From Somniosus microcephalus (lineage: Eukaryota), in contig CM126203.1 of assembly GCA_052327205.1 (NCBI GenBank), positions 272,118,001-272,182,000 of the forward strand: 64,000 nt of DNA, in the 5' to 3' direction. Below are positions 3,401 through 63,665 of the stretch, one piece after another. The stretch's first letter is position 1. Each line of letters opens with the position of its first letter. The notes under the pieces were generated by a model. It saw only the letters and a program-made list of their open reading frames with translations, was not told the DNA's origin and searched no databases. A program made the position numbers and the translations under genes.

Positions 3401-3989
3401 CCTAGTTCTAGTAAATGACACCGCCAAAAAACTTTTCCAGTTCTCTCAGGAAGACCTTGAGCAGAAGCGAGTTCTGTTTGTGCATCGCGGTGCTGACACT
3501 GGCAGGTTTGTCTTGTTTGTAACTGATGGTAAACACTACACTTCTTCGTTACTGGAGGTCAGTGCCTCAGATGCTTATGTTCAAATAGCTAACAACACAG
3601 GGCTTCTGGTGCAGAAGGGACAAGAAGAGCCTCTAACAACAGCTAATTTCAGTGTTAATACAAACCTTTTTATTGCAGAGGAAAGTGAGATTAATTACAG
3701 AGTGTTTTTGTCACCGAAACATGGAGCACTCTATTTGAATGGTATGCGTACAGAATCTTTCACTCAGAATGATTTGAAGAATGGCCAAGTAGTGTATCGC
3801 CATGACAACAGCAACAATCTTGTGGACAAGTTCAATTTCACAATAAAGGTGAAGCATTTACTGCTGGATGGAGGGGTTAATGTTCGTATATACCTGGAAA
3901 GCCATCAGCGTGCTCCAAGAATTGTGCACAACAGCAATCTATTGGTTGAAGAAGGGAAGCCTGTGAAAATCAGCAAAAAAAATCTTCAG
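438..3989 (+). CDS. cspg4b: CSPG4-family gene, giant exon (two laminin G domains plus CSPG/cadherin-like repeats)
   Basis: 3552-nt stop-free exon, ttcttag acceptor and CAG|gtgaga donor. LamG motifs (NFRGCI, SFRGCL) and CSPG repeats (YVHDGSE, YVHDNSE, YRHDNS, PTNDAP). A giant third exon is characteristic of CSPG4 genes. Confidence 0.95.
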
Positions 3990-4136
3990 GTGAGATGGCT
4001 GCAAGATGTGAGTTTGTTCTTGAATATAAACTGTTATCTTCTTGGTTAACATTACTTGTCTGATTGTTTCCCGAATTGTTTTTCCAAATATCCCTTCAAA
4101 TTAAAGGAGTACTTTAGGGAATTGATCCAAAACACT

Positions 4137-11215: not shown

Positions 11216-12417
11216 GTGAGAGAACCTCATTAGCAGAATTAACCATGCAGTCTTTCTAATGGTACATTACCTTTGAGCGATATTGCTCATGGGATCCCTG
11301 GTTTTGGCAACAGTGCAGCGAGGTATATCAGACCTTTTGTAAATGCTGAAATCTACCTGAAGAAGTGGATTTCCCTGGGTATCTATAGCTAGCAGCAATG
11401 TAAGTGCAGGCTCTAATGGTATCAGCTGCCATTTGTTCCTGAAGTAAGTTGCCTGCTATGTATGAGCCAGCAATGCGATTTCAGAATGGCTGACCTGTAC
11501 TGGAATTCATCACCTAGTGGGGAAGGTCTCAAAGCCAGAAAATAAAGCCACAGATTGTGTGAAAAGTTGTTTGTTTCAACGGTGCTGTAGATTCTGCCTT
11601 GCATTTTAAGCAGGAAGAGTTTCACAGCACTGGGAGCCAAAGCCAATACACAGCTGCTGGTACTTGAGCAGCTCCCCAAGATAAATGCAACATAAATGGT
11701 AGAATTTCTTGTCTCAACTGTTGTTTTGTGAATGTCTAACTTCACTGCTGAGCTGATAGAGGTCAATTTGCAAGCTAAATTCTTCGCAATTTTCTGGTTC
11801 CTTGCTTCCAAGCGCATTAGTAGATTTAAAATGTAGTGCCTTGGAACTATAGAAACTTATAGCACAGGAGAATGCCAGTCATCTCATTGTATCTGTGCCA
11901 GAGCTTTGTTAGAGCAACCCAAAACTAATCCCACTGCCCTGCTCTCCCCACAGATCTGTATCTGCCTCTGCTTTGAATGTTTATCTGGTCTTCCCCTAAA
12001 AGAAGCAATGGGCTGCCTTAACTGCTCCGTGTAACACAGAATTCCACACTCTAACGATGCTCGGTGTAAAGACATTTCTCTCTCCTCACTATCCTAGTGA
12101 CAATTTTAAATGGATAACCCCTCAATACTGACTCCCCACCCAGAGGAAATAGTCTTTCCCCGCTTGTCTATGTACAATCAAAAAAATGGCAAGTGAATTT
12201 GTTTTTTTTGGCAATGGGGGTAAACTTTCTGCACCGGTATCCAGATCTCCCGCTTTGCGGGGGTTTCCGTTGAAGTTACAGCGGATGATCGGGAGAACAT
12301 CTGGGGAAATTCCAGGCATGGGCGTTTTTCCCTTTTTAAAATATGTCTATGTAAATATGTCGCTGATCTGGGCACTACATATTTCACCTCTGTATTGTGA
12401 TACCTTCTTTCTTTCAG

Positions 12418-12891
12418 GCCATGCATGAAGACAATCTACCATCCGAAATAATTTACAAAGTGAAAATTGCACCAGCTCATGGCTACATTCGTAGCTTTGC
12501 TGAAGCAGAAGGGTACTATGTTGGAACAGAACATAAACCAGTCCAGTACTTTACACAACAAGACCTAAATGATGGCAGCATTCAGTATGTGCAAGTGAGA
12601 GCAAATCAGATAAAGGACAGCTTTACTGTGGATATTACTAATGGAGTAGTAGAACTGTCTGGAATTCTAATCCAGATTGATATTATTCCAAGACTGATCC
12701 CACTGGAAGTACATAACTTTACAATCAAGGAAGGTTCATCTAAGGCATTGACAGAGGACTTTATAAAAGTTGCAAGTCCACACTTTGCTGAGCTTAATTT
12801 TGAATATTCAGTAATAGAAAAACCAAAACACGGACATATAGAGAACTCCCGTTTTCCTGATTTATCTCTCTTGTCATTTACTAGACAACAG
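12418..12891 (+). CDS. cspg4b: CSPG4-family exon (CSPG repeats)
   Basis: ctttcag acceptor and CAG|gtact donor; 474 nt, phase 0/0; AMHEDNLPSEIIY...FTQQDLNDGSIQYVQ...SFTRQQ. Confidence 0.92.
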
Positions 12892-13158
12892 GTACTGTGA
12901 AAATGTTTCATTTTTCTTGTCAATGTAGACTTTCCTGTGTACTTAATGATTTAATTTTGTTTTTCCCCATAAGATGTCTTTTGTCAGTCAAATGCATAAA
13001 TAAGACTATCTTGGCTACAATTCTAACTGAGAGCAATTCATCTCCTACTTGAAAGATGTAGGTTCTACTTATAGTTCAAATTCATATGACAAGTGAACAT
13101 TTTCAGAATCTGTGTATATTGGTAATAACACTGATTTTTATATCACTTCACCTTTTAG

Positions 13159-18040: not shown

Positions 18041-18203
18041 NNNNNNNNNNNNNNNNNNNNNNNNNNNNNNNNNNNNNNNNNNNNNNNNNNNNNNNNNNNN
18101 NNNNNNNNNNNNNNNNNNNNNNNNNNNNNNNNNNNNNNNNNNNNNNNNNNNNNNNNNNNNNNNNNNNNNNNNNNNNNNNNNNNNNNNNNNNNNNNNNNNN
18201 NNN
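18041..18203. other. Assembly gap (163 N)
   Basis: Run of N directly abutting the minisatellite. Confidence 0.99.
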
Positions 18204-20372
18204 CCCCCCCAGTCTCTCTCTCTCTCCCCCCCAGTCTCTCTCTCTCTCTCCCCCCCAGTCTCTCTCTCTCTCCCCCCCAGTCTCTCTCTCGCCCCCCCGC
18301 CCAGTCTCTCTCGCCCCCCCGCCCAGTCTCTCGCCCCCCCCGCCCAGTCTCTCGCCCCCCCGCCCAGTCTCTCGCCCCCCCGCCCAGTCTCTCGCCCCCC
18401 CGCCCAGTCTCTCGCCCCCCCGCCCAGTCTCTCGCCCCCCCGCCCAGTCTCTCGCCCCCCCGCCCAGTCTCTCGCCCCCCCGCCCAGTCTCTCGCCCCCC
18501 CGCCCAGTCTCTCGCCCCCCCGCCCAGTCTCTCGCCCCCCCGCCCAGTCTCTCGCCCCCCCGCCCAGTCTCTCGCCCCCCCGCCCAGTCTCTCGCCCCCC
18601 CGCCCAGTCTCTCGCCCCCCCGCCCAGTCTCTCGCCCCCCCGCCCAGTCTCTCGCCCCCCCCGCCCAGTCTCTCGCCCCCCCGCCCAGTCTCTCGCCCCC
18701 CCGCCCAGTCTCTCGCCCCCCCGCCCAGTCTCTCGCCCCCCCGCCCAGTCTCTCGCCCCCCCGCCCAGTCTCTCGCCCCCCCGCCCAGTCTCTCGCCCCC
18801 CCGCCCAGTCTCTCGCCCCCCCGCCCAGTCTCTCGCCCCCCCGCCCAGTCTCTCGCCCCCCCGCCCAGTCTCTCGCCCCCCCGCCCAGTCTCTCGCCCCC
18901 CCGCCCAGTCTCTCGCCCCCCCGCCCAGTCTCTCGCCCCCCCGCCCAGTCTCTCGCCCCCCCGCCCAGTCTCTCGCCCCCCCGCCCAGTCTCTCGCCCCC
19001 CCGCCCAGTCTCTCGCCCCCCCGCCCAGTCTCTCGCCCCCCCGCCCAGTCTCTCGCCCCCCCGCCCAGTCTCTCGCCCCCCCGCCCAGTCTCTCGCCCCC
19101 CCGCCCAGTCTCTCGCCCCCCCGCCCAGTCTCTCGCCCCCCCGCCCAGTCTCTCGCCCCCCCGCCCAGTCTCTCGCCCCCCCGCCCAGTCTCTCGCCCCC
19201 CCGCCCAGTCTCTCGCCCCCCCGCCCAGTCTCTCGCCCCCCCGCCCAGTCTCTCGCCCCCCCGCCCAGTCTCTCGCCCCCCCGCCCAGTCTCTCGCCCCC
19301 CCGCCCAGTCTCTCGCCCCCCCGCCCAGTCTCTCGCCCCCCCGCCCAGTCTCTCGCCCCCCCGCCCAGTCTCTCGCCCCCCCGCCCAGTCTCTCGCCCCC
19401 CCGCCCAGTCTCTCGCCCCCCCGCCCAGTCTCTCGCCCCCCCGCCCAGTCTCTCGCCCCCCCGCCCAGTCTCTCGCCCCCCCGCCCAGTCTCTCGCCCCC
19501 CCGCCCAGTCTCTCGCCCCCCCGCCCAGTCTCTCGCCCCCCCGCCCAGTCTCTCGCCCCCCCGCCCAGTCTCTCGCCCCCCCGCCCAGTCTCTCGCCCCC
19601 CCGCCCAGTCTCTCGCCCCCCCGCCCAGTCTCTCGCCCCCCCGCCCAGTCTCTCGCCCCCCCGCCCAGTCTCTCGCCCCCCCGCCCAGTCTCTCGCCCCC
19701 CCCGCCCAGTCTCTCGCCCCCCCCGCCCAGTCTCTCGCCCCCCCGCCCAGTCTCTCGCCCCCCCCGCCCAGTCTCTCGCCCCCCCCGCCCAGTCTCTCGC
19801 CCCCCCGCCCAGTCTCTCGCCCCCCCGCCCAGTCTCTCGCCCCCCCGCCCAGTCTCTCGCCCCCCCGCCCAGTCTCTCGCCCCCCCGCCCAGTCTCTCGC
19901 CCCCCCGCCCAGTCTCTCGCCCCCCCGCCCAGTCTCTCGCCCCCCCGCCCAGTCTCTCGCCCCCCCGCCCAGTCTCTCGCCCCCCGCCCAGTCTCTCGCC
20001 CCCCCGCCCAGTCTCTCGCCCCCCCCGCCCAGTCTCTCGCCCCCCAGCCCAGTCTCTCGCCCCCCCGCCCAGTCTCTCGCCCCCCCGCCCAGTCTCTCGC
20101 CCCCCCGCCCAGTCTCTCGCCCCCCCGCCCAGTCTCTCGCCCCCCCGCCCAGTCTCTCGCCCCCCCGCCCAGTCTCTCGCCCCCCCGCCCAGTCTCTCGC
20201 CCCCCCCGCCCAGTCTCTCGCCCCCCCGCCCAGTCTCTCGCCCCCCCGCCCAGTCTCTCGCCCCCCCGCCCAGTCTCTCGCCCCCCCGCCCAGTCTCTCG
20301 CCCCCCCGCCCAGTCTCTCGCCCCCCCCGCCCAGTCTCTCGCTCCCCCCCCCCCCAGTCTCTCTCTCTCTCT
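18204..20372. repeat. Homogeneous 20-bp minisatellite (GCCCAGTCTCTCGCCCCCCC)n, roughly 100 copies
   Basis: Near-perfect tandem array varying mainly in C-run length; both ends grade into CCCAG(TC)n simple sequence. Confidence 0.98.
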
Positions 20373-20529
20373 CCTTACACCCTCTCTCTTTCCCTCTCTC
20401 CTTCCCACACAGACAGACAGACAGACAAACTCTTTTATATATATTAAAAATTATTTCTACTTTTTTCATAACAACATGCCCTCAAAAAACCCTCGGCACT
20501 GCCGGGCACTCCAGCTAGTACAGTTATAA

Positions 20530-38545: not shown

Positions 38546-41500
38546 TTATAAATTCAGTCTTTGGGGCAGCTTCCTGATCCTTTCTGGATAGCGCTTTTCC
38601 TGAGTGTCTTGCTCTTGGTGCGGAGGCCCCCTGTCGTCAGTTGGCTCATCAGCTTCCGATGCTACTGTTTCTGGGGTAGATGCTACCTGTATGTCGGGTT
38701 CATCACCAGGTACGCGACACATGGGGTTGACTCGTTCCTGTGACTCTAGGATCTGGTCGACATGGCGTCTCACAATGTTCTCCCCAACATCCACTGTGTA
38801 CATTAGTGGCCCCTGCCGTGTGCATATCGTTCCAGGTTGCCATTTCTCTGTTCGGTAGTCGCGGGCCAAGACTGGTTGCCCTACATTGAAGCTCCTTGTC
38901 GGCTTCTCATTGATGTGCTGGAATTGCTTATTTTCAACATCCCTTCGTACATTTGGTCTGAGCAAATCCAGACGAGATCTCAACCTTCGGTTAAAGAACA
39001 TCATGGCCGGGGTCTGGTTGGTGACTGCATCTGTCGCATTTCTGTAAGCTAACAGGAAATTGTCCACCTTGTGCTGTAGTGGAATGTCGTCATCGCACAT
39101 GGCCCGTACTGCTTTTTTAAAGGTTTGTACGAACCTCTCAGCCAATCCATTTGTGGCTGGATGATACGGGGCGGATGTGTAATGCCTTACCCCATTCCTT
39201 TTCATGAATCTTCAAAACTCTTCGGACACAAACTGTGGTCCGTTATCAGAGCAAATCTGCTCTGGCAAGCTGTTCCTGGCAAATATGGTCCGTAGGACTG
39301 CAATAGTTTTCTCCGTGGTGGTGGACGACATTTTGATCACCTCAGGCCATTTCGAGTGCGCATCCACGGCTATTAAAAACATTGAGTCCATGAATGGACA
39401 AGCAAAATCAATATGCACCCTTTGCCATGGAGATGAGGGCCACTCCCATGGGTGTAGAGGGGCATGTGGTGGTGCATTTTGGACCTTCTGGCATCCTGAG
39501 CAGCTCTTTGTCAGGTCCTCAATTTGCTGATCGATCCCCGGCCACCACACATAAGCCCTAGCAAGGCTTTTCATCTTCACCCCTCCCAGATGGCCTTCGT
39601 GAAGCTCATTGAGCACTCTCTCCCTTAACTTGGGTGGAATTACCACTCGGGATCCACACATCAAGGTCCCCTGGCATACTGACAGCTGTTCTCTTCTGGA
39701 TGAGAATGCTGGCAACAGTGAGTTGCCATGTGTTGGCCATCCCTTCACCGTCCAGTTTTTACCCGAGACAGTGTCAGGTCATTTCGGGTCTCCTCTATAT
39801 CAGCGTTAGTTACTGGCAAGCGTTCAATTATAGTCGAATAAAATATTTCGACAGGGTCCACTGCTGGTGCTTCCTCCGCAGTAGGCAGTGGCAGGCGCGA
39901 TAGCCCATCAGCGTTTCCATGCTGTTTCGTGCCCTTATACTCGATTTCATATTGGTTCGCCCCTAGAAAAAGGGACCATCTTTGTAGCCGTTGCGCAGTC
40001 ATCACCGGAACGCCCTTCTTTGGATTAAAGATGGAGACAAGTGGTTGGTGGTCAGTCAGCAAGGTGAACTTCTGCCCGTGCAGATAGTGGTTGAACTTTT
40101 TCACTCCCCACACTAGGCTGAGGGCCTCCCTGTCAATCTGGGCGTAGTTACGCTCGGCTGAGGTTAGTGACCGAGACGCAAAGGCTACCGGCCTCTCCGA
40201 GCTGCCCGGGAACTTGTGCGACAGCACCGCTCCAATGCCATAGGGTGATGCATCACACGCCAACCGAATTGGTAGTGCTGGGTTGAAATGAGCCAACACC
40301 TCTTTTGATGTGATCAATTCTTTGCACTTCTGGAAAGCTCGCTTACATTCGTCATTCCACTTCCATGGTACCCCCGTTTGCAGTAGGGTGTTCAGTGGGT
40401 GTAGTACTGTAGACAAATTCAGCAAGAACTTATGGTAGTAGTTCACCAGCCCGTGGAACGACCTCAGTTGTGACGCATTTTCCGGTGCTGGAGCCTTGAC
40501 TACTGCCTCAATCTTTTCAGGGGACTTATGTAACCCCTCTTCATGAATAATGTGGCCACAATACGAGATCTGCTTCTGGAAAAACTCGCATTTGTGGCGA
40601 TTTGCTCGGAGCCCATATTCCTTCAATCTAGTGAGCACCTGCTCCAGGTTGGCAAGGTGATCACTGTCACTTTTGCCCGTGACCAGGATGTTGTCCAAAT
40701 AACACTGGGTCCCTGGAATCCCTTGCAGGACTTGATCCATTGCCCTTTGCCAAATAGACGGAGCTGATGCTACCCCGAACACCAGCCGATTGTGTTGGTA
40801 GAGACCTTTATGAGTGTTGATCGTGAGGTACTGTTTCGAGGCTTCTTCTACCTCCATTTGCAGGTACGCCTGGGCCAGATCAATCTTAGTGAAGCGTTTC
40901 CCTCCAGATAGCGAGGCGAAAATATCTTCAATCCGTGGAAGCGGATATTGTACCGTGTGAAGGACTGGGTTCACTGTCACCTTAACGTCCCCACAGATGC
41001 GAACCTTCTTTGGTTCCCCAGGCGTATTACTCAACGACCTCTTCATTACAGGAATGATGGGTGTAGCCCACTCGCTCCAGTCCACTTTGGACAGTACTCC
41101 TGAACGTTCCAAACCTTCCAGCTCTGCTTCGACGGCTGGGCGGATTGCATAAGGTCTGGCCTTAAAAAAAACTTTGGGCTTGCATTTTCCTCTATTTTGA
41201 TCGTCGCTGTTATGCCTTTTAGTGTTCCGAGTCCCTCCTGGAACACTTCTTGTGCGTCAGTTAGCATTTTTGACAGTCGTCCAGGTGTGACGTCGTCATC
41301 GTTTTTGGCATCTACAGTCAGTGCTTGTATGGAATGCCAATCTAGCTGTATCTTCCAGATCCATTCACGTCCTAGTAGTGGTGGTCCTCCATCTGGCAAT
41401 ACATATAGGTCCATTTTTGGTGTTTCCTTGCCGTTATATATAACGTTCATCCTTATTTTTCCTTTGGGGTAGACTTTTTGCCCCGTGTACGTCTTCAAGA

Positions 41501-42476
41501 CACTCTCTGTATCTCTCAAGGGTATATGTGAGAATAGCCGCTTGTAGTCCCTTCGGTTTATGACTGTTAGGGCTGATCCTGTGTCCAATTCCATTTTCAC
41601 TTGGACTCCAGCTATCTTGAGCGTGACCCAGATAGTTTGGTGATCCTCCGTTTTGATCACCTTATGTAGTTTCAGACAACCCAGCTCCTTGCTTCCGGAG
41701 TCTGTATCACTCTTCTGTTCGTCTGAACTACTCTCCGTCACCTTATGTACCTTCTTGTACTTCTCCTGTGGAGATTTCTTGCTGCTGGTTTTCTTTCCCG
41801 ACCTGTAGACTCTTGCTATGTGTCCTACTTTTCCACACTGTCTGCACACTTTGTCCTTGAACCAGCAATCATTATGGTCGTGTGTTGTTCTGCCGCAGCG
41901 ATAGCACTTCACTGTTCCGTATGACATTTCATTTGTGCCATATTCTTGCGGTCTCCGTTGTATCTCTGCAGCGCCCCGTGCGGCTGCTTCGTGTGATACT
42001 GCCATGCTGAAAGCCTTGTCCAGCGTAAGATCCTTTTCTGATAGAAGCCGTTTCTGGGTTCCTTCACTTTGAAGCCCACACACAAACTTGTCCCTTAAAG
42101 TATCTGCTAGTCCCGTTCCAAACTGGCAGTGTTTTGATAGCTTGCGCAGTTCCGTTAAATACTCAGCATTACTTTCATCTTTATGCTGGTTCCTTTTGTG
42201 AAACTTAAATCTTTCTGCTATCAGCAGCGGTGTGGGGTTTAATTGGTCCTGTAGGATTGACACTATGTTTCCAAAATCCTTTTCCACTGGCTTCTCTGGG
42301 GTTACTAGGTTTCGCAGTAAGCCATACGTTTTTGCACCCATTGAATTCAACAATACCAGCGCTTTCCTCTCATCTGGCACTTCATTCGCCTTGCAGTACA
42401 CTTCTATGCGTTCAACATATGTCGTCCAATGTTCGACTTCATTGTCGAACGCTGTGATACTGCCACTCTTCGGCAT
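38546..42476 (-). pseudogene. gag-pol polyprotein, frameshifted
   Basis: Four consecutive ORFs (41046-42476, 39745-41112, 39212-39748, 38546-39205); RT catalytic motif reads YLDN instead of YLDD; integrase HIDFA, SDNGPQF, TNGLAER. Confidence 0.93.
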
Positions 42477-42694
42477 CCCTGGGTGTGGTTAGACTGGCTC
42501 AAAATGGCGTTTTCCCACGCTCTCCCTTCTCCGCTGTGGCTCAAAATGGCATTTCCCGCGCTCTCCCTTCTCCGCTGCGGCTGCTCGGCCCTTGAACACC
42601 GGCTGCGCTCTGCACGTTTCCCTTTCTTCCCCACTGACGCTGCTCGTCCCTTGAACACCGGCTGCGCTCTGCGCGTTTTCCTTCGCGCCTCTCT

Positions 42695-42965
42695 CCTCCC
42701 GTCGACGCCATTCGGTCCTGAACACTGGCTGCGCCCTGTGCGCTCTACCCTCTCTCTTCTCCCGTCGATGCTGTTCGGTCCTGAACACCGGCTGCGCCCT
42801 GTGCGCTCTACCCTCTCTCTTCTCCCGTCAACGCCACTCGGTCCTGAACACCGGCTGCGCCCTGTGCGCTCTACCCTCTCTCTTCTCCCGTCGACGCCAC
42901 TCGGTCCTGAACACCGGCTGCGCCCTGTGCGCTCTACCCTCTCTCTTCTCCCGTCGACGCTGCTC
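42695..42965. repeat. 60-bp tandem repeat (~4.5 units) in the Gypsy leader
   Basis: Unit ccgtcgacgccactcggtcctgaacaccggctgcgccctgtgcgctctaccctctctcttct repeats with a 60-nt period. Confidence 0.9.
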
Positions 42966-43233
42966 GGCCTTTCCTATGCCGTCGGTCGGCTCTAGCCGCC
43001 GCTGTCCGGGAAGGGTCTGCGCCGCACCTGTTGCCAGCCCATTTCGCTGGAGAACCAAGCCCAGCTCTCAACAGCCTCCCCTGCGATGCTCAAATCTCCG
43101 CTGGATAACTGGGCGGTTGCTCGTGGTCGACGCCTGTGCTTCTGGCCTCGACCACCTTCCACTGTTCTCCAGGAGCGAATCCCTGGGAGGTGATGCAGAG
43201 TTGCAGGTAGGTTCGAATCTGCCTCGTCGCCAA

Positions 43234-43447: not shown

Positions 43448-43801
43448 GGTTGCGCCACCCATTAGCGCCTAAAGAGGTCTAGAAGTGGGGCGCTAGCCAA
43501 CTAGCGCCCGGGCGCAGCGAACCCTGCATCTCTTCCCAAATTGAGCGGACATTTAGCGCCGGTGCTAAACTGTAGCGCCTGCTCACTGGCGCACGCAGAT
43601 CATGATGTCATTTCAGTGTGCAATGCCCTTGGGGCGCCCCGGACTGGAAATTCAGTGGCGCCCCCCTCCGTTCCGCCTGTCGCTACCAACAACAGGTTAC
43701 CGTGAACGTTTCCCAGTCGCTGTCGGGCTGGGGGTGGGGGTGCTATTTAAAGGGGACTCTTCCTGGATTATTAGTGGTAGCCATTTTTGGACCACACCTT
43801 C

Positions 43802-43839
<38 letters not shown>

Positions 43840-43965
43840 GCTCAGGGACAAACGGAGAGCCATTCCTGCAGTGAGCCAGTGCTGGCTGAGGAACTTTAGC
43901 CTTCTGAACATAACTTTGCAGTTGGTAAGCTTCTCAACCGGCATAACTTTCAGTGCGCACTTACT

Positions 43966-45068
43966 ATGGGGGCTGCATTGGATGGGAACGTCGTCCTTCT
44001 CAATCACACTGACGGCACAGAGACGCAGGGATAGAGTGGCAGGCATGGCCAGACAGAGGAGGGCCAACAGACGTCGGCACACGAGACCTTATGCTGCCAG
44101 GGTTTTCCGCCAACAGTTTTCGTATATCAACATGTCGGAGGAGCAGTGTTTCCGAAGGCTGCGCTTCAGTAAGGAGGTGGTCACTGAGCTCTGCCACCTG
44201 CTTCAGCCAGATCTGCAGCCTCAACTAAGGTGCAGGACATCTCTGTCGGTGGCTGTGAAGATCACTGTGGCTCTAAACCTCTATGCCAGCGGCTCCTTTC
44301 AGGCCGCTGCTGGGGACATTGCCAACATCTCACAGTTCACGGTGCATTGCTGCATCCGTCAAGTGACTAATGCCCTCTTTAAAAGGAGACGGCAGTACAT
44401 CTCCTTCCCAATGACCCCGGACAAGCAGCGAGAGCGCGCCGAGGGCTTCGCAAGGATAGCGGGCTTCCACATGGTGCAGGGCGCCATTGACTGCACGCAT
44501 GTGGCTTTGTGGGCGCCTCTAGAGAATGCGCAACCGAAAGGGGTTCCATTCTTTGAATGTGCAGCTGGTCTGTGACCACCGACAGCTGATACTCGCTGTC
44601 AGTGCCCACTTTCCAGGCAGCAGCCACGACGCCTTCATCCTGCGCCAGACTTCTGTGGCAGACCTTTTCGAAGCCCCAGCTCACCCAGGAGGCTGGCTTC
44701 TCGGGGACAAGGGCTATCCTCTGCCCCGGCTGCTGACCCCGCTCCGTTCGCCCAGCACCCCTGCTGAAGAACGATACAACGAGAGCCATCAAGTGACTAG
44801 GAACATCGTGGAGCACACAATCGCCGTGCTGAAGCAACGGTTCCGCTGTCTGGACCATTCCGGAGGAGCCCTTCAGTACTCACCTGAGCGAGTCTCCCAC
44901 TTCGTGGTTGTGTGTTGCATGCTGCATAACCTGGCAATCCTCAGGACCCAGCCAATGCCACCAGACATTGAAGCACCAGCAGAGCAGGAGGAGGAGCAGC
45001 ACCAAGACGGGAGGGAGGCACAAACTGCAAGGGCCGTCCGTCAGAGGCTTCTAGCAAGTCGCTTCTAG
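43966..45068 (+). pseudogene. Harbinger/HARBI1-like DDE transposase, one frameshift near 44530
   Basis: [75 protein letters not shown]. Start position uncertain. Confidence 0.9.
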
Positions 45069-51271: not shown

Positions 51272-54200
51272 ACAATGGCCTAGAAATTTGATAAGGCCCG
51301 AAAACGGGCACGAGGATCACAGTGCCAGTTCAGAGGGCTGCAGGCTGCGGGCAAATTTCGTGCTACCTGCTAATTTACATGATTGTAGCGTTCAGCCCAT
51401 CGCTGAACGCACTGCTGAGTGGCTGAATGCTCAGCAGGGAGCTCAAGTTCATGTCAGGCTAGCACCACTTAAAGCAAGCCTGCACTTCTTAAAGGCAATC
51501 TGCACCTCTTAAAGGGGCGGCACATTCTGCCTGCAGCAGCTGCTGGAACTGGTTGTAGAGGTAAATGTGAGAAAGAAGCAGATTGCTTAATGGTTCAACA
51601 GGCCAGAGAAAGGGCTCCAAGATTCTCTGATGCAGCACTGGAGGCCTTGGTCCAGGAGGTCAACTCCAGGAGAGAGGTCCTCTGTCCAGGAGGCCCTCCA
51701 GGCAACAGACCAGACTACAGTGGAAGCGGATAACCAGTGTGATAAATGATAGCAGTATAGCCCCGAGGACCTGGACTTAGTTCAGTAAGAAGTTTAGTGA
51801 CCTCACACGAGTGGTCAAGGTCAGTGAATTCGTCTTCAAATGCTGTCTCTCACCATCTGCACCTCGAGCCTCACGCAATGCTCAGTGCACCACCCCCCTA
51901 TCACTCATCTACCAACAATCTCTACCAAACACGACTCGCACCTTACATTCATAGCTTCACCTCACCCGCACACTTGCCACTGTTGCCTCACACCCACATC
52001 TCACAGCTTCAACACAAGCTATTCGACCATGACGGGCACATCAGCTAAACACATTACACCATACTCACTGACACACTTCCCTTTCTCTTGGAGAAAAAGG
52101 TGGCTTATAACGGGTGCCAGCAGACCTTAACTGGTGGGGTACAGGCTCGCCTGCATCGCCTCACCCCCTCGGAGGAGATGGTGCTGGCCATTCTTGGCAG
52201 GGGCAATGCTGAGCCCATAGCCAGCGGCGGGGCTGAAAGAATAGAAGATGATGGTATCTTCATACTTTATCCTCCTCGCATCCCACTTCCTCCTCATCCC
52301 ACAACCTCTTCTGATTTACAATCTACACATGGTGTAAGCATGCACGTCTTATTTTCCCCCCCTCTGCTCACCACAACTCTACCCTTGTGCCTTCCTCATT
52401 TTAGACACCCAAGAAATCCAGCCTGCCCAGCCAGTGAGTCAAAATGAAGAGGGAGAGGAAAGTGAAGAAGAAGAAGAAACAGTCACTCGATTTCACACTC
52501 CCAGCCACCAGCTCAGATACTGACAGTTCGCATACCTTAGAAGATAGGTTAGATGTGGGATCTGCACAGGGTGAGACACCGGACACAAGTGGCCTGCAGC
52601 CAGGGCAGGGGGAAAAGGGTAACTCAGGTGCCAGCTCCCCGGAGGGCAAGGTTGCACACGATTTCTGCTGCAGATGACTCCAATGAAGACTTCGCTGGGG
52701 CGGCCTACACGAGAACGCTGATGGATATGCACAATGAAATGCTTGGTGCATTGGCAGGCCTGCCAGAAAGCCTGAATGCAATGTCACAGAGCATGTCCAG
52801 CTCCAGACTTTCACAGGGCTTTGGGCAGACCTTGGAGCCCATCCTTCCCAGCGTGGAAGGGCTGGGCAGATCCATTAATGCACTTGTGGACCCAACTATC
52901 ATGCAGCGTCTGATGGCCAAAGTCTCAGCTTCCATTGCAGCACAAGCAGAAGCCACCCAATGTCGGAGTGTTGCAATGGAAGCTCAGACTGAAGTCGTGC
53001 AAACTCAGCTTGCTGCCACGCAGAGCACAGACTTCTGCCATTATGGGTGGGTTTACCAGTGTTGAAAGAGGGTTGCAGGGTGTCACAGCAGTCTGTACTC
53101 CATCAGATTGCTGAGGCGCTGCCCCGGGGGAGTGGCAATGAATCCGTGGAGGCCGCCCCTACTGTCCTCTCTCACGATGACAGCATTTGTCGTCCCACCA
53201 CTGCCACTCCACCAGCGCCCTTGCTGATGCCTGTCAGCCAGCCAGTCCAGATTGCTGCCGGCCATGCTGAGGTGGTGCAGTCAAAGGCCGGGCCTACTAG
53301 GTCATCCTACAAGGGCATCTGCAGTCTCCCCCACTGAAAGTCGGCAGCCTTCCACCGGCCATGTTGCAGCCACTGGGGCAGCACTGCGTAAGAGCACTAC
53401 GATAGACAAAGGCACATGCAAGACAGTCCCTAAGGGAATGCCCAAGGGTGATTAGTTGATTTTTTGATGTAATATTGGATGAATAGATGTTGGATTGGAA
53501 TAACAACAGAAAATGCTGGAAATACTCAGCAGGCCAGGCAGCATCCGTGGAGAGAGAAACAGAGTTAACGTTTCAGGTCTGGGACCCTTCATCAGAACTG
53601 GAAAAAGCTGCAGATGTAACAGATATTAAGCAGGTGCAGAGACAGGGGGTGGGGTTTAGCAGGGGAGGAAGGAATAGAAAGAACACCCTGTACTTTTGTA
53701 AGCGGCAGGAAAGATAAAATGTTGCAAATGGGAATGGCAAAAATCATACTGCATGAAAAATGGGGGCAGGGATAATTATCTGAAATTAATGTTGAATGGG
53801 GAAAAAGGGCTGTCTGGGTTGCCTCCCTCCTTTCGCTTTCTCTTCCTCTTCCTCCTTCTCATCTTCCTCCTGCTCCTGAGCTGGTGGCAAGGGCTGTGCC
53901 CTCATGACAGCCAGGTTGTGGAGGGTGCAGCAGACCACCAGGAATCAAGTACTGTAGGGCTCCTCCAGTGCGGTCCAGGCAGCATCCCAACGGTCTGCTC
54001 TATGATGTTTTGTGTGGCAGCATGGCTCTCGTTTACACATTATGGCCACGTGTGGTTGGATGCAGAGCGGAGTCATGAGCCAGGAAGTCAAGGGATATCC
54101 CTCGTCACCCAGTAGCCACCCTCTGGTTTGTCTTGGCTCAAAGACTGAAGGAACAGCAGACTGGCGCTGAATAAAAGCATCATGACTGCTGCCAGAATAC

Positions 54201-55374
54201 TGGGCATTCACCATCATGATGTGCTGAGCATGGTCACACGCCAACTGCACATTCAGCAAGTGGAAACCTTCGCAGTTGCGGTACATCTCAGCATTTAGAT
54301 ACGGTGCCCGCAAAGCCACGTGTATGCAGTCGATGGCACCCTGCACCATGGGGAAGCCCATGATCCTGGCAAAGCCACGTGAACAGTCCGCCTGCTTCTC
54401 TTTGGTCAGAAAGAAGACAATAAAGTCCCCTCTCCTGGCATAAAGAGCATCTGTCACCTCTCTTATGCAGCAGTGGATGGTGAACTGGGAGATGTTACAG
54501 ATGTCACCTACTCCAGCCTGGATTGATCCCGACGCAAAATAATTCAGGGTCACTGTCACCTTCACAACCACTGGCAGTGCTGTCGTTGCTCTGGAGTGAG
54601 GCTGCAGGTCTGGTTGCAAGAGGTGGCAGAGTTCTGTGAGCACCTCCTTTGTAAAGCGCATACCTCTCACACACTGCTCCTGGCTCAAGTTGAGGTAAGA
54701 GAATTGCTCTCCAAAAACCCTAGGTGGATAAGGCCTCCTGCTGAGAGCCCTTCTCCCCACCTCCTCCTCTTCCCTCTGTGAGCAGCTTGTCCCCTTCTTT
54801 GCTGACTCTGCTCCATCTCCCTGTCATACTGCAGGCTAATGGGGATGACAACTAGAGCACTGATGACTGGGAACAAGTGGTCTGACCAGAACCCTTGTAG
54901 TCAGAAGCAAGGCTTTCTCCACTTGCAGCACCACTCCCTGCCACTTCAACAACTTTAAACAACTCGAGAAAGCTCCAAACACTTCCATAAACTTACACAG
55001 AGCCAGTAGAAATCAAAAAGCAAGTTACCTGAAAGTTGTTGATGATCCCTTTAAATAGCCCTGTTGGGGGTTCCTTCCTGCTGCTGAATGCATGTTCAGC
55101 TGTGCGAGGTTAACACAGGATGTTAGTTCCAGCAATGACAACGAAAATGGCAGCACTGGCATCAAATCAGCATTGCGTGCTGATTGACGTCATGATCTGC
55201 CTACCATACTCCAACACACGCTCCTACGGCGCCCGACCGCCCTCACCAAGATGGCGTCCGGCGCAGCCCGCACCAGAAGTGTGCGCATGCTGCTCGGAAA
55301 CCATTTTGGACCCAATTCGACAACCGTAGCAACCAAACAACGGGCACTATGCAACCGAATTTCTAGGCCATTGT
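51272..55374. mobile_element. Full-length degraded PIF/Harbinger transposon (Myb/SANT gene + at ~51590-53455; transposase - at ~53830-54880)
   Basis: Perfect 17-bp inverted repeat ACAATGGCCTAGAAATT at both ends (outer bases may be a palindromic target site); MVQQARERAPRFSDAALEALV; transposase [23 protein letters not shown]; stops and frameshifts; Penelope-tail insertion at about 53495-53795. Confidence 0.9.
53563..53599 (-). ncRNA. Minimal type I hammerhead ribozyme motif, second intact copy
   Basis: Minus strand AGTT-CTGATGA-AGGGTC-CCA-GACCT-GAAA-CGTT-AACT; differs from the 35897 copy only in the stem II loop. Confidence 0.72.
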
Positions 55375-56590: not shown

Positions 56591-56892
56591 CGCCAACCCC
56601 CCCCCTCGAATTTTCTTAAACAAAGTCCATAAGCCTGTGAAAATGTCAGATTCTGGTTAACAACCCTGCGGAGGCTCCTCCCATCTTCCCGTATCCAGAT
56701 AATTACATCTTAGTGTTACCATGTACAATTAATTTGGCATGCTAAACTTCATTGCCCAGGCATGTACATCATGGAACTAACTTCATGCTGCACAGAATAA
56801 GTGCTAATGATCACAGGATGTGGCACAGCTGTCATGTAATGATGAGTCACTTGCCCTAACCATGAGGATCCACCTTTAAAGATAAAACTGCC

Positions 56893-57138
56893 TGTTAAGT
56901 CTGTGTGTTATATTGAGAATTACTACACAGACCACAAGAGTAAAATTTAACAGGTCTTCACTGGTTGAAGGTCAGGGCGGAACTGCCCAATAAATCCTTA
57001 CACAGCACTTATATACCGGTGTGGTCACCACCGGTATTACAGTATACAGCAGCCAAGATAAAGTAGTGCAACTCTTAAAATAGTTCTCTTAAAGGTGGAA
57101 CGGTTCTCTTAAAAGGTGGAACGGTTACATACACTACA
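56893..57138 (-). repeat. 3' LTR of the chimeric element (~246 bp)
   Basis: Starts TGTAGTGTATGTA like the sister LTR; shares the block tatac.ggtgtggtcac..ccggta.tacagtatacag; ends ...TTAACA; internal 20-21 bp tandem duplication at about 57083-57123. Confidence 0.85.
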
Positions 57139-57230
57139 ATCCTCCCTTTTTAGCTTAACAGTATATATTTCCCATTAAACATAACATCATAACATATATA
57201 CACAACTTCATGTAAGAACAGTTCACAGAT

Positions 57231-57850
57231 TCAGTCTCTGAGGCGGCGCCTCCTGACTCGGTCCGGATAACGCCTCGGTGGTGTAGTAGTTTTCGGTGGT
57301 GTAGTAGGTTTTCGTTGCTGGGGTGACTCATCTAATAGTCCTTCACTGGACTTAACAGCTTGAATTTTCGTAACTTCAGAACCAGCATTGTTGACTTCTA
57401 AAGGCTCGAGTACCTTGGGAAGTTTTTCTGCGTCCAGACTGATTTGGCTCAGTTCGGAGGGACCACGTGCGTGACCTGGTAGGGGTGATAATGGTTCAGA
57501 TGAGTCATCATCTTCATCATCCTGGGACAACTCACATGAATATACTAGATTGCTGTCCTCCTCAGTATCTACGTCCTCCAAATGTTTTATTATTTCTATT
57601 TTTGGAGCTTCAACTGTGAGTGTGGCTGTGGTCTGTGCATTACTTGATTTGCAGCTATATTCACCAGAGTCTTTGGGTATGAGATTTGTAATGGTAAGTT
57701 CTATCACATTCTTCTTTTGTTTAAATTTGTTTCGGTCAGAAGATTCGATTAAGCTCTGGTCTTTGTACCATCTGACCATCTTGGGAGTAGGTGTAAACTC
57801 ACAGCTCAAAGTAGCCGAATGCTTCTCTTCCCCTGTAATGTTCTGTAGTT
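57231..57850 (-). CDS. Chimeric ORF, part 2: rest of titin-like Ig, STK10-like linker, Gypsy C-terminal tail
   Basis: In frame with part 1 once the CR1 is removed: KVVKE|LQNITGEEKHSATLSCEFTPTPKMVRWY...DSGEYSC...; stop at 57231-57233. Confidence 0.88.
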
Positions 57851-60800
57851 ACATAGATACATAGATACATAGAAGATAGGAGCAGGAGTAGGCCATTCGG
57901 CCCTTCGTGCCTGCTCCGCCATTCGATGAGATCATGGCTGATCCTTTAATTCAGTATCCCGTCCCCGCCTTCTCTCCGTAACCCTTAACCCCTTTTGCCC
58001 GTAGAAATATATCTAATTCCCTCTTAAATATATTTAATGAGCTGGCGTACACTGCCCTCTGTGGCAATGAGTTCCACAGGTTCACCACTCTCCGAGTGAA
58101 GAAATTCCCCCTCATCTCTGTCCTAAATGGTTTAGCCCTTATCCTTAAATTATGTCCTCTAGTTCTGTTCTCACCCGCCAAGGGAAACATTCCTTCTGCA
58201 TCCAGTCTGTCTAGACCTGTCAGAATTTTATACACTTCTATGAGGTCCCCTCTCAATCTTCTAAACTCCAGTGTGTACATCCCTAAACTACATAGTCTCT
58301 CCTCATAGGTCATTCCCGCCATTCCTGGTATCAGCCTGGTGAATCGCCGCTGCACCCCCTCCATGGCAAGAACATCCTTCCTCAGATGAGGCGACCAAAA
58401 CTGTACACAGTACTCGAGGTGTGGTCTCACCAGTGCCCTGTACAGCTGCAGCAAGGTATCCCTGTTCCTGTATTCTAACCCTTTTGCTATGAAGGCCAGC
58501 ATACCGTTTGCCTTCTTGACCGCCTGTTGCACCTGCATGCTCGCCTTCAGTGACTGGTGTACAAGAACACCCAGGTCTCTCTGTACTTCCCCCTCTCCCA
58601 ATCTATTGCCATTTAAATAATAATTTGCCCTCCCGTTCCTGCACCCAAGGTGGATAACTTCGCACTTGTCCACATTATAGTGCATCTGCCATTTATCCGC
58701 CCAATCGCCCAGTCTGTCCAAATCGCTCTGGAGCTTCCTGGTCTCTTCCTCTGAGCCCACCCCCCCTCCTAGTTTAGTGTCGTCTGCAAATTTGGAAATG
58801 CTGCATCCGACTCCCTGATCCAGGTCATTAATGTAAATTGTGAACAGCTGGGGGCCCAGGACAGATCCCTGTGGTACCCCACTTGTTACTGCCTGCCATT
58901 CAGAAAATGAGCCGTTTATTCCAACTCTCTGTTTTCTATCTGACAGCCAGTTCCCTATCCACGCCAAAACTTTCCCCTTTATCCCATGAGCCTCAATTTT
59001 CCATGCTAATCTTTTATGTGGGACCTTATCGAAGGCCTTTTGGAAGTCCAGGTACACCACATCTACTGGCTCTCCCCCATCTATTCTACCAGTTACTCCC
59101 TCAAAAAATTCCAATAGATTAGTCAAGCACGATTTACCCTTTGTAAATCCATGTTGACTCTGTCCTATCCTGTCCCCATTTGCTAAGTGCTCCGCTATTT
59201 CATCCTTAATGATGGACTCCAGCATTTTGCCCACAACTGATGTAAGGCTTACAGGTCTGTAATTACCTGCTTTTTCCCTACCCCCCTTTTTGAATAGTGG
59301 GGTAACGTTAGCTACCCTCCAATCCATCGGCACTGTTCCCGAGTCTAATGAATTCTGAAAAATCATCCTTAGTGCATCCGCTATCTCTAGGGCCACCTCC
59401 TTCAGTACCCTAGGATGCATGTTATCAGGCCCTGGGGATTTGTCCACCTTCAATCCCTTTAGCTTCCTTAACACCATATCCTTAGAGATATTGATTTGCG
59501 TCAGTTCCTCCTTTGCCAATGTCCCTATTTTTCCCGATATCCCAGGGAGGTTTTTTGTGTCTTCCTTCGTAAAGACTGACCCAAAGTATGCATTTAGTTG
59601 ATCTGCCATTTCCTTATTTCCCATTATATATTCCCCCGTATCTGACTGCAATGGACCAACTTTGGTTTTCACCAGTCTTTTCCTTTTGATATATTTATAA
59701 AAGCTTTTGGAGTTAGTTTTTATATTTTCCGCCAGCTTGTTTTCGTAAGCTATTTTGCCCCTCTTGATCATGCCCTTTGCCCTCCTTTGCTCTATCTTAA
59801 ACTGTTCCCAATCTTCCGCTCTGGCGCTTTTTTTGGCTATTTTATACGCCCTATCTTTGGATTTTATGCTGTCTCTAATTTCCCCTGTTATCCACGGTTG
59901 AGTCACCTTTTTAGATTTCCTTTTATGCCAGATTGGTATAAACAATTTTTGCAATTTTGTCATTCTATCTTTAAATGTTTGCCATTGTTTATCTACCTCC
60001 AGTCCTCCCAGGAACGTTGTCCAATCAGACCTACTCAGTTCCCGTCTCATGGCATCATAATTCCCCTTGTTTAAATTCAGGACCTTAGTCTCTGAGTCAA
60101 TTTCTTCGCTCTCCATTTCGAGTGAGAAATCGATCATGTTATGATCGCTCTGACCCAAGGGTCCCCGTACAACAAGATTACTGATTAGTCCCTTCTCATT
60201 GCACAGTACCCAGTCCAATATAGCCTGTTCCCGAGTTGGTTCCTCGACATATTGATCCAGATAACCATCCCTTAAACACTCAAGGAATTCCTCCTCCTCA
60301 TTATTTTTACTGATTAGGCTAGTCCAATCTATATGTAAGTTAAAGTCACCTATGATGACAGCTGTGCTCTTATTGCACGCTTCTCTAATTTCCCTCGTGA
60401 TGCCCTCCCTAACCTCTATTTTACTATTTGGAGGCCTATATACCACTCCTATTAATGTTTTTCGCCCCTCGCTATTTCTTAGCTCCACCCATATAGATTC
60501 TGTATTAACTGAGTTAATATCCTTCTTTTCAATTGCATTTATCCCCTCTTTTACTAGCAATGCTACCCCTCCTCCCTTTCTTTTTTGTCGATCCTTCCTA
60601 AATACTGAATACCCCTGTATGTTAAGCTCCCAGCCCTGCTCACCCTGCAACCATGTTTCCGTAATCCCAATTAGATCATAATTATTAACCTCTATTTCCA
60701 CAGCTAATTCATCTACCTTGTTCCTGATGCTTCTCGCATTAAGGTATAAAACCCTCAGGCTTTTTTTATGCTCACATTTTTTATGAATTAGTTTGGCCCT

Positions 60801-61216
60801 TTGTTTTTTGTTCCTCACCCTTTTACCATTTATTTCTGTCTGCCTTTCACTTTCCTCTATTTCACTACATAGGTTTCTAGCCCCCTGCCATACTAGTTTA
60901 AATGCTCCCGAACTGCTTTATCAAAAATTACCCCGAGAACATCAGTTCCATCTCTGCACAGGTGTAGACCGTCCCTTTTGTATAGGTCACACCTACCACA
61001 AAACTGGTTCCAATGCCTCAAAAATTTAAAACCCTCCCTCTTACACCACTGCTCAAGCCACGTATTTAGCCTAACTATCCTGTTCTCTGTACTCTTACTA
61101 GCACGTGGCACTGGTAGTAATCCAGAGATTACTACCTTCGAGGTCCTACTTTTTAGCTTGGCTCCTAACTCCCTAAATTCTACTTGTAGGACCTCTTCCC
61201 TTTTTTTAGCTACGTC
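57851..61216 (-). mobile_element. Young CR1 LINE, truncated within ORF1, ORF2 intact
   Basis: (TATGTATC)n tail at 57851; flanked by a 3-bp direct repeat (gtt at 57848-57850 and 61217-61219). Confidence 0.96.
57951..60818 (-). CDS. CR1 ORF2: APE endonuclease and reverse transcriptase (955 aa, uninterrupted)
   Basis: YLNARSI, GITETWL, IGDFN, SDHN; [27 protein letters not shown]; no stops. Confidence 0.95.
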   Translation of the reverse strand: MRNKKQRAKLIHKKCEHKKSLRVLYLNARSIRNKVDELAVEIEVNNYDLIGITETWLQGEQGWELNIQGYSVFRKDRQKRKGGGVALLVKEGINAIEKKDINSVNTESIWVELRNSEGRKTLIGVVYRPPNSKIEVREGITREIREACNKSTAVIIGDFNLHIDWTSLISKNNEEEEFLECLRDGYLDQYVEEPTREQAILDWVLCNEKGLISNLVVRGPLGQSDHNMIDFSLEMESEEIDSETKVLNLNKGNYDAMRRELSRSDWTTFLGGLEVDKQWQTFKDRMTKLQKLFIPIWHKRKSKKVTQPWITGEIRDSIKSKDRAYKIAKKSARAEDWEQFKIEQRRAKGMIKRGKIAYENKLAENIKTNSKSFYKYIKRKRLVKTKVGPLQSDTGEYIMGNKEMADQLNAYFGSVFTKEDTKNLPGISGKIGTLAKEELTQINISKDMVLRKLKGLKVDKSPGPDNMHPRVLKEVALEIADALRMIFQNSLDSGTVPMDWRVANVTPLFKKGGREKAGNYRPVSLTSVVGKMLESIIKDEIAEHLANGDRIGQSQHGFTKGKSCLTNLLEFFEGVTGRIDGGEPVDVVYLDFQKAFDKVPHKRLAWKIEAHGIKGKVLAWIGNWLSDRKQRVGINGSFSEWQAVTSGVPQGSVLGPQLFTIYINDLDQGVGCSISKFADDTKLGGGVGSEEETRKLQSDLDRLGDWADKWQMHYNVDKCEVIHLGCRNGRANYYLNGNRLGEGEVQRDLGVLVHQSLKASMQVQQAVKKANGMLAFIAKGLEYRNRDTLLQLYRALVRPHLEYCVQFWSPHLRKDVLAMEGVQRRFTRLIPGMAGMTYEERLCSLGMYTLEFRRLRGDLIEVYKILTGLDRLDAEGMFPLAGENRTRGHNLRIRAKPFRTEMRGNFFTRRVVNLWNSLPQRAVYASSLNIFKRELDIFLRAKGVKGYGEKAGTGY

Positions 61217-63665
61217 GTTCTTTGACTACCTTTGACGGAGGCTCTTTAATAGTCAGCCTCGCCTTAGATTTTGATTTCCCTGCAATAAACTGCAGCAAGC
61301 CGGTCATCTTAGAAATTGTTTTTTTCAGAGTGAGACGATGAATAGTGCCACAATGCTCAATGTCCACATCTTCAGAAGCATGAAGAATTTCACCATTTAG
61401 TATCCATTTTGGAGGCTTCACGTCAGCAACTGAAAGCTCACACTCAAGAATGGCGTCACTTGGCTCTGTCACTTCCACATCACATATGGGTTTAATGATG
61501 GCAATTGATTGCTCTTCTACATATAACTTTGCTGTGCTTTGGTCATCTATGGCGTCGCACATGTAGTTGCCTTCATCTTCAAAAGCGACATTATTAATAA
61601 CGAGCTTCCTGTACACATCTTCACTCACAATCTCATATTTATTACTGGGATGAATCTCTTTGTCTTTGTAATACCACTTGACAGCATTTGGCCTGGAAAC
61701 CTTGCATTCGAAAATGACACGATGTTTTTCCATGCCAATCTTCTCTCTTAAGGGTTTCACAATTTTAACTGGCAATTCTTTAATTCGAAGCAAAGCTCTG
61801 GAAGTAGCGCTTTCAGCAACAAACTTGATCTCTGCAGCATCTTCAGTCTTTGCCTCTGCCACCAATTCCCTGAGTGGCTTATTACTACTGACACTGCTCA
61901 CAAAAGTGTGCTCTTTCTTCTTAGCTTTCAACTGATCGATGAATTTGACATATTCCCTTTCTTGCTCAGCTTTGATTCGTTTGGCCTCATCGCGCAGACG
62001 GTTTGTGTGTTCCTGTTCCATTTTCTCAATCAGCTGCTTCTGTTGTCTTTCCAGATTCTCCCACTCTGTGTCAAAGAACTTTTTCTTTGCATTCATCTCT
62101 TGCTCAAAACGGCGAATCATTTGTTCTAATTGCTGTTGTAGTTTGAAATTGAGTTGAATTCGAGCCCGGTGTTCCTCAGAAATGTGCATGTCTGTAGACT
62201 GGACAGACTCAGAATTCTCTGTCAAACTATGTTGTTGCTGTTCAGTGGAATTCTGTTCTGATACTTTGTTCTCTCCTGAAGCATTTATACACTCCTTCGT
62301 TTTTCCATCATTAGTCTGCAAGTCCATTTTAGACTTGTCTTTTGCACATGGGCTGGTCTTACCATCATCAGTTCCAGGGTCTGAGCTGATTGTCTTCACC
62401 GAGTTCTCACTCTCTGCTTTGTCACTGTCACTGCTGCATATGCCCTCATCCAATATTCTGGACAATCGTGCAGGTTTGACATCTTTTCTTTTTCCGGAAT
62501 CGCCCGTTATTGCTTTTAGGGGGTGCCAGTCCATATTTATTTTCCTGATCCACTCCCGTCCCAGAAGTGGTGGACCTCCCTCAGGTAGTACATATATGTC
62601 CATTCCTTGGTGTTCTTTGCCCTTATGTACCACCTTGACTTTTATCCTTCCGATGGGGTATACTCTTTGCCCCGTGTATATCTTTAATACTATCTCCGTA
62701 TCCCGTAGGGGAATATGTGTGAATAACCTTTTGTAATCTTGCTTATTCATGACCGTCAACGCCGATCCGGTGTCCAATTCCATCTTCACTTGGACTCCTG
62801 CTATCTGCAGGGTGACCCAGATAGTTTGTCGGTCAGCTTCCTTACTCACATTGTGAATTCTCAGACTACCCAGTTCCTTGCTGTTGGAGTCTGAATCCGA
62901 ATTCTGTTCATCCGAACTCTTCTCAGCCACCTTGTGTACCTTGCTGCACTTTTCCTGTGGTGACTTTTTGTTGCTGGTCTTCTTTCCTGACCGGCATACT
63001 TTAGCTATGTGACCAAGCTTGCCACATTTTCTACATTCCTGGTTTTTAAACCAGCATTGGTTCTGATCGTGTGTTGTCTTCCCACAACGATAACATTTCG
63101 TTGTACCCAAAGCCATTTGATCTACGCTGAGTACCGCTGCCTTCAGCTGCATTTCCGCAGTGCCTCTCGCTGCGGCTTTGTGCGATGCTGCAATAGAGAC
63201 AGCCTTATCAAGTGTAAGATCATTCTCTTCAAGTAGCCGCTTTTGTGTTCCTTCTTTCGACAATCCGCACACGAATTTGTCTCTCAGTGCCTCTGTCAGT
63301 CCTTCCCCAAACTGACAGTATTTCGCTAGCTTACGCAGTTCAATTAAGTACTCCGCGTTGCTTTCCTCTTTCAGTTGCGTTCTCGCATAAAATTTAAATC
63401 GTTCCGCTAACATCAGCGGTGTGGGGTTCAACTGATCCTTCAGGACAGCAACAATATTAGCGAAAGTCTGATCCGCCGGTTTAGCTGGTGATAGAAGATG
63501 CTTCAATAGCCCGTATGTCTTCGCACCCATTGAGTTTAGTAAGGTTAATGCTTTATCTTCATTTGATATTTTATTTGCCTTACAATATATCTCTATGCGT
63601 TCTACATACGTGGCCCAATCTTCAACATCGGGATCGAAATCGTTGATGTTACCACGCTTAGGCAT
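61217..63665 (-). CDS. Chimeric ORF, part 1: Gag-protease fused to STK10-like linker and coiled coil and titin-like Ig domains
   Basis: ATG at 63665 (MPKRGNI, compare sister MPKSGSI); two CCHC knuckles; ELDTGSA; then EEHRAR...AKKKFFDTE...[25 protein letters not shown] and I-set Ig repeats; cut by the CR1 at 61216. Confidence 0.88.

Follow-up and report, generated by a model that had tools for sequence, protein, structure and literature searches.

Host RNA is captured by retroviruses through strand transfer of the reverse transcriptase (RT), by copy-choice and forced copy-choice. A general RT strand-transfer model is also cited for the LTR-mediated retrocopies described by Tan et al. (2016, PMC5131818), which include maize Bs1 and share with the element described here the replacement of an internal ORF by host RNA; the words "circular" and "circRNA" occur 0 times in the main text of that paper. 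The other closely related system is that of the circRNA-derived pseudogenes of mouse circRFWD2 (Dong et al. 2016, PMC4897178), which, as here, display a non-colinear exon-exon joint, consist of circle exons only and have no poly(A). LTR sequence is enriched in the flanks of the circRFWD2 copies, although the mechanism was left open and called mysterious (PMC4897178).

The window, i.e. the whole 64,000-nt stretch of Somniosus microcephalus DNA that was analysed, holds most of a non-autonomous Gypsy LTR retrotransposon in which RT, RNase H and integrase have been replaced in frame by permuted exons of STK10. Its features, in the order in which the element is read, are as follows.

64456-64701, just outside the window: 5' LTR, 1 base different from the 3' LTR.
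62456-63665, minus strand: Gypsy gag with a CCHC knuckle, followed in one frame by aspartic protease and cargo (Pfam zf-CCHC and gag-asp protease).
62444-62455, minus strand: 5' junction, a 12-nt microhomology TATTGGATGAGG common to the parent element (just after the protease) and host STK10.
62174-62443, minus strand: downstream portion of the 675-nt exon of STK10, cut off by an internal deletion of 414 nt that has a GAGG microhomology at 62177-62174 (against full copies L016-L027 and the host).
61911-62173, minus strand: spliced STK10 coiled-coil exons, the rest of the 124-nt exon and the 180-nt exon (Pfam PKK and host exons).
61910-61911, minus strand: back-splice joint, end of the 180-nt exon to start of the upstream 135-nt exon (host splice sites).
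61848-61910, minus strand: first part of the STK10 135-nt exon.
61217-61847, minus strand: first part of the obscurin Ig cargo, spliced and colinear, with a 10/11 microhomology at its start.
57851-61216, minus strand: CR1-type LINE with endonuclease and RT ORF (Pfam), AAC duplicated at the insertion site.
57509-57850, minus strand: second part of the obscurin Ig cargo, ending in a 7-nt GAAGATG microhomology with STK10.
57338-57508, minus strand: STK10 again, from the last part of the 135-nt exon into the first part of the 675-nt exon (joint at 57486/57485), closing the turn.
57327-57337, minus strand: 3' junction, host TAT followed by TAGATGAG from the parent integrase tail (7/8 to the host).
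57231-57326, minus strand: remnant of the integrase C-terminal tail with stop codon, in which the tail of a second helper subfamily has taken over part of the sequence.
57139-57151, minus strand: polypurine tract.
56893-57138, minus strand: 3' LTR, TG...CA, 246 bp.
56888-56892, minus strand: target-site duplication of 5 bp, GGCAG, also present ahead of the 5' LTR.

The element's own ORF has no RT or rve domain, the RT at 57951-60917 being part of the inserted CR1, and no env was seen in the Gypsy carrier. The cargo abuts the integrase tail directly, without a poly(A) tail. TGG stands one base after the 5' LTR, and no tRNA genes were found in the window. The tail at 57231-57300 matches L061 and L073, members of the second helper subfamily, and has a variable run of arginines at its end, which points to repeated recombination with helpers.

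The remainder of the window holds several unrelated features. Exons at 438-4049 and 12367-12900 belong to a host gene whose repeats are of laminin G and cadherin-like type and which we take to be CSPG4-like, and broken ORFs at 43781-45068 and 53945-54823 resemble Harbinger-type transposases. A GC-rich, strongly skewed short tandem repeat of ~2.2 kb (18204-20450) adjoins an N run (18041-18203). A decayed Gypsy at 38546-42995 retains gag, PR, RT, RH and IN with frameshifts; it was considered as the parent of the element and rejected, being only 71% alike over gag-protease.

The host STK10 gene lies on C8, and the cargo consists of five of its spliced exons (135+675+131+124+180 = 1245 nt) in permuted order. 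The 180-nt exon ends at a GT donor (the host continues GTAAAA) and the 135-nt exon starts at an AG acceptor (preceded in the host by TTAACAG), so that the joint fuses a downstream donor to an upstream acceptor at the exact splice sites; in the linear mRNA the two ends have only AG in common. An exact 30-nt pattern across this joint has 887 genome matches (control 0). Among the 12 full copies examined, the nine without indels have 8-12 differences from the host over 1245 nt, with six positions common. Host alleles include A at circle position 878 and T at 1175, counted from the motif. It is this splice-site joint, at 61911/61910, that does most of the work in arguing for a circle, and the capture of a back-spliced STK10 RNA by a Gypsy element is considered very probable.

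Two other sources for such a joint need to be weighed. Two ordinary linear STK10 mRNA pieces might have been joined by RT template switches, the permutation being accidental, since template switches are frequent in the family (obscurin, a third cargo and the 414-nt deletion); however, those switches lie mid-exon at 4-10 nt of homology, whereas this joint sits on two splice sites with 2 nt in common and the outer ends meet at one motif. The accident is barely credible, and has largely been refuted by the exon map. A linear RNA with the five exons repeated, with entry in its second repeat and exit in its first, would give the same splice-site joint and the same 1245-nt period, and could stem from trans-splicing, exon repetition or a lost tandem-duplicated allele; Dong et al. 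(PMC4897178) also state that non-colinear joints may have other sources. Against this stand the absence of duplicated STK10 exons from the 60 kb of host locus, and the restriction of the 12 full copies, and of the alignment of full copy L016 to the host, to those five exons. Nothing in a linear repeat forces the exit at the entry motif, which would be met in 1.4-1.8% of cases by chance, and this template is regarded as quite improbable.

Some further properties of the host gene and its relatives were observed. The circle would comprise 415 codons with no stop in the coding frame (five STK10 exons, L034-L039), and if translated would be an endless reading frame. The two flanking introns (15.5 and 8.0 kb) have no inverted repeat between them at E 1e-5, a point against the circular reading. 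The intron after the 131-nt exon has a GC donor. The STK10 proteins closest to the cargo are from sharks. An intronless STK10 copy (L040; G000 C3, ~354.658 Mb) covers residues 753-977 at 97% to shark protein P0001, is 5'-truncated and abuts CR1 sequence; it is likely an ordinary LINE-made retrocopy of linear STK10 mRNA. Two intron-containing STK10/SLK paralogs lie at ~2.2-2.3 Mb of C8 and ~27.5 Mb of C30 in G000.

The sequence-only reading of the window had started from an 11-nt repeat at the cargo ends, TATTGGATGAG at 62455-62445 and TATTAGATGAG at 57337-57327 on the minus strand. Both are placed as claimed, are identical at 10/11 positions and stand in equal codon phase (I-L-D-E and L-L-D-E, respectively). 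The bare repeat is not above chance, as 110 11-mer pairs with ≤1 mismatch occur in the 3197-nt element body (CR1 excluded). It carries weight because the alignment to the autonomous parent, at 98-99% over L016 1-1231, stops exactly at one motif and resumes exactly at the other, at L016 2468, and because the motif occurs just once in the 60 kb of the host locus that were searched, inside the 675-nt exon. Host sequence 5' of this single motif is the cargo end, and that 3' of it is the cargo start. The motif spacing is 5118 nt in the window copy because of later changes to that copy; in full copies it is 1245 nt, the summed length of the five host exons. By position, both motifs are found at this spacing in 7/12 full copies, with a small-indel shift in 4 and a mutated 3' motif in 1.

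It had been predicted that the segments ending GLLDE and starting GICSS would form one contiguous host peptide. This was borne out in shark STK10 P0001 (SSEGLLDE then GIC(G/S)SDSDK) and P0005 (ANEGLLDE before GIC(G/S)SDSDK), and the two segments are adjacent in the genome's own STK10, at the single motif in mid-exon. Linear STK10 contigs in three of four sequencing runs (X1, X5, X11; that these are RNA runs is a guess) continue through the motif and jump back by 1245 nt, and therefore confirm the adjacency in other organisms. These contigs show linear STK10 only; since assembled contigs drop rare forms, they are neutral on the circle. Element transcripts would contain the same joint as the circle.

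An autonomous parent with the predicted microhomology was also found. A reading pattern for the parent sequence after the protease gave 11,509 matches (control 2), and 20 of these parent-type loci, selected mostly for the motif, were fetched. Four of them (L058, L062, L069, L074) are 98.7-99.0% alike to L016 as far as the 5' junction and 96-98% alike beyond the 3' junction, and the gag-protease of L016 is 98-99% identical to the autonomous parents. In the same four loci TAGATGAG precedes the tail, L057 has one change there, and most other fetched loci have different tails. L074 encodes gag-PR-RT-RH-IN in one 1334-aa frame, with the Ty3/Gypsy domain order. Its match to host STK10 is 12/12 after the protease and 7/8 in the integrase tail, TATTGGATGAGG being the longest exact match, and the only one so long, between L074 and the circle. 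The two parent sites are 2652 nt apart, in frame and themselves 7/8 alike; the hybrid lacks these 2652 nt of RT-RH-IN and keeps both LTRs. The 3' junction is likely the entry point onto the circle and the 5' junction likely the exit point from it during minus-strand synthesis.

With the parent in hand, the claim of a terminal redundancy bracketing the cargo has to be restated. The repeat is real, but it did not arise by duplication of host sequence: a single host motif matches the parent at two sites. No more than 4 nt of the host could have been copied twice, and the 5' motif is also parent sequence. The sole mismatch between the two motifs, the A of the 3' copy, is the parent base and differs from the host; it is present in 51/56 loci checked, some of which overlap. 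The claim that the copying made exactly one turn is supported, with a host-only span of 1236 nt and a maximum of 1249, i.e. one turn, -9 to +4. Entry and exit of RT at the same short motif is likewise supported by the matched positions, the joint and the parent microhomologies at both places. As evidence for a circular template the repeat is no proof alone, and its contribution is the added support of matched entry and exit (~1.4-1.8% by chance). This estimate counts entry sites within 12 nt of the exit motif, 35/1909 among equally good sites and 11/780 among in-frame ones, if entry is independent of exit; selection for an open frame and best homology could make the coincidence more frequent than the estimated 1-2%.

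Direct observation covers the parent element, the exons of the host gene, the joint at the splice sites, the microhomologies, the period of 1245 nt and the dispersed copies with their LTRs and target duplications. The course of events that probably links them is a single-pass, RNase-H-limited copying of a 1245-nt STK10 circular RNA, by which RT-integrase was deleted. The circular RNA would likely have been packaged together with parent RNA. Minus-strand synthesis on the parent would reach the integrase tail, i.e. the 3' junction, first, where the nascent 3' end, complementary to TAGATGAG, could pair with the STK10 motif at 7/8 bases, the mismatch being a G-T wobble. RT would then copy backwards round the circle and through the back-splice joint. 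RNase H is known to cut RNA behind the polymerase, so that after one turn the template should run out close to where it was entered; here, RNase H would cut the RNA at the entry site and the template would end after about one turn (1236-1249 nt). The new end, carrying the motif, would find the perfect 12-nt match after the parent protease, 2652 nt upstream and in frame, and synthesis would continue. The hybrid would be spread by helper enzymes, and later steps would comprise the loss of 414 nt, the uptake of obscurin mRNA by the same kind of switch, and the insertion of a CR1 LINE into the window copy.

Consistent with such a limit, retroviral RTs with intact RNase H made products of <150 nt in vitro on a 42-nt circle and RNase-H-reduced enzymes 300-1000 nt, the short products being "possibly" due to RNase H according to the authors (PMC9550094). 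As the short products amount to up to about 3 turns on a tiny circle (PMC9550094), RNase H is no absolute one-turn limit. The wobble entry at 7/8 is weak, and rival orders of events give a stronger entry. Foremost among these, the same STK10 circular RNA may have been looped in at one site, RT-IN being lost in a separate step by slippage between the parent's two look-alike sites. Entry and exit would then coincide, either at the 12-nt match or at the one motif of a parent already without RT-IN, and an identical product would result if a circular cDNA crossed over at the motif. In its favour, this order needs no RNase H to account for matched entry and exit, the two sites in the parent agree at 7/8 and keep the frame, and the junction letters fit equally well. 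However, two rare events are needed and neither predicted intermediate was found, though every later intermediate of the family occurs in numbers. An exact pattern for the looped-in intermediate had 11 genome matches (10 of them read), with G next only in the host, and one for an empty, RT-IN-deleted parent joined at the motif had 0. Because both searches used exact patterns, which would miss decayed copies, this failure is modest evidence. The two-step order is rated unlikely in comparison with the single pass round the circle.

The element has spread widely. The window cargo as a DNA query gave 1377 candidates, of which the 40 scored were 99-100% alike, and exact patterns for the junctions had 887 and 727 matches on both strands. 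The copies have distinct flanks and target duplications. A query with the STK10 stretch that the window lacks gave 98 matches among 150 scored of 191 candidates, including a few host or paralog exons; in the full-length subfamily, all 12 loci examined (12/12) have this stretch between the two junctions. Among the 14 other copies fetched with the window element, three have no Ig part and consist purely of permuted STK10. The 414-nt stretch is missing from every one of the 17 copies sampled at the head of the C1 list; 16 of them share the GAGG joint (62177-62174 in the window), and in one the loss is longer. Some of these copies carry obscurin, some a third cargo and some both. L088 and L089, on different contigs, each have an identical LTR pair and share their right flank, which suggests that one was duplicated, either segmentally in the genome or in the assembly. 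Element sequence was also found in sequencing runs of three organism codes from two studies (run kind unrecorded). No annotated chimeric protein appeared among the best 120 of 2231 matches (7985 candidates scored), which are all STK10-type by name or Pfam.

The obscurin cargo comprises five spliced exons with a host match of 96-99%, and replaces ~35 nt of STK10. Its template is taken to be linear because the host exons match in colinear order, and its switch points show microhomologies of 10/11 and 7/7. Titin was considered as the source of the Ig cargo and rejected, since the best matches were to obscurin, including the five host exons. Obscurin carriers numbered 931 candidates (150 scored). 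The CR1 is in the window copy only, being missing from the 14 other copies (L002-L015), and L086 shows the empty site. The order of events, full to deleted, then obscurin, then CR1, is read from nesting because the cargo tree is unresolved, with 1/40 inner branches supported (43 rows, 5 left out for short matches). A third cargo of ~450 nt overwrites the 5' motif junction in frame in L077-L079, L108, L111, L113, L115, L116 and L124, and resembles the region around the taspase site of KMT2A/B.

A diverged sister lineage (L104:881-4579 at ~16.332-16.336 Mb of G000 C1, and L125-L138) is young and abundant, with 1147 candidates, of which 40 were scored at 99-100% to L104; it is ~80% alike to host STK10. 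It has the same 414-nt deletion and keeps long open frames, and its extra cargo, a long coiled coil with a C2H2-like finger, gives an open frame of 834-988 aa in many copies. Pairwise dN/dS is 0.17 for gag-protease against the parent, and 0.44 over 74 codons and 0.18 over 49 coiled-coil codons against host STK10; the out-of-frame STK10 tail has frameshifts and no third-position bias. As one small pairwise comparison, these cargo values are a lead to selection only. One joint in the coiled coil of this lineage, which we take to resemble RAI14/ANKRD24, looks like a second back-splice.

Because the donor gene and the parent element share one genome with both switch points and with several of the later stages, the mechanism is readable base by base. 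The element preserves the joint of a putative shark circular RNA, and displays a route to circularly permuted, multi-gene fusion frames that have spread to hundreds of copies. Tentatively, a wider rule may be proposed, in which RNase H holds the RTs of LTR elements to one turn when they write circular RNAs, so that a permuted, full-turn, in-frame cargo bracketed by one motif would be the general signature of a recurring route, which in sharks would have founded large families with a gag-protease-cargo fusion kept by selection (dN/dS 0.18 over 49 coiled-coil codons). If this is true, such shark families are mobile sources of shuffled protein domains. The rule is testable, as an RNase-H-competent RT should copy about one turn and exit where it entered.

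In comparison with known systems, retroviral host-RNA capture shares with the STK10 element co-packaging, short homology, loss of pol and dependence on a helper. The STK10 element differs in its host template, likely a circle closed covalently, and in its carrier, which is a Gypsy retrotransposon. No report of a circSTK10 was found in the literature, nor, among titles and abstract openings (subscription papers and supplements apart), one of a circRNA captured inside an LTR element with mapped junctions, although the supplements of Dong et al. may map LTR junctions. The retrocopies of Tan et al. (PMC5131818) resemble the element in their multi-gene chimeras and secondary spread as non-autonomous elements, and have microsimilarity at both switch points (median 6 bp, compared to 12/12 and 7/8 here). 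Their templates are linear mRNAs entered and left at different places (PMC5131818), whereas in the STK10 element entry and exit coincide and the cargo is permuted. The circRFWD2 pseudogenes also exist in many copies, 33 of them high-confidence (PMC4897178). Beyond what is described for them, the STK10 case has the parent element, both switch points and the one-turn length resolved to the base, a cargo in frame with gag-protease, and the joint in at least 887 copies. The STK10 element thus joins two known phenomena, circRNA pseudogenes and LTR-mediated retrocopies, with its junctions resolved to the base.
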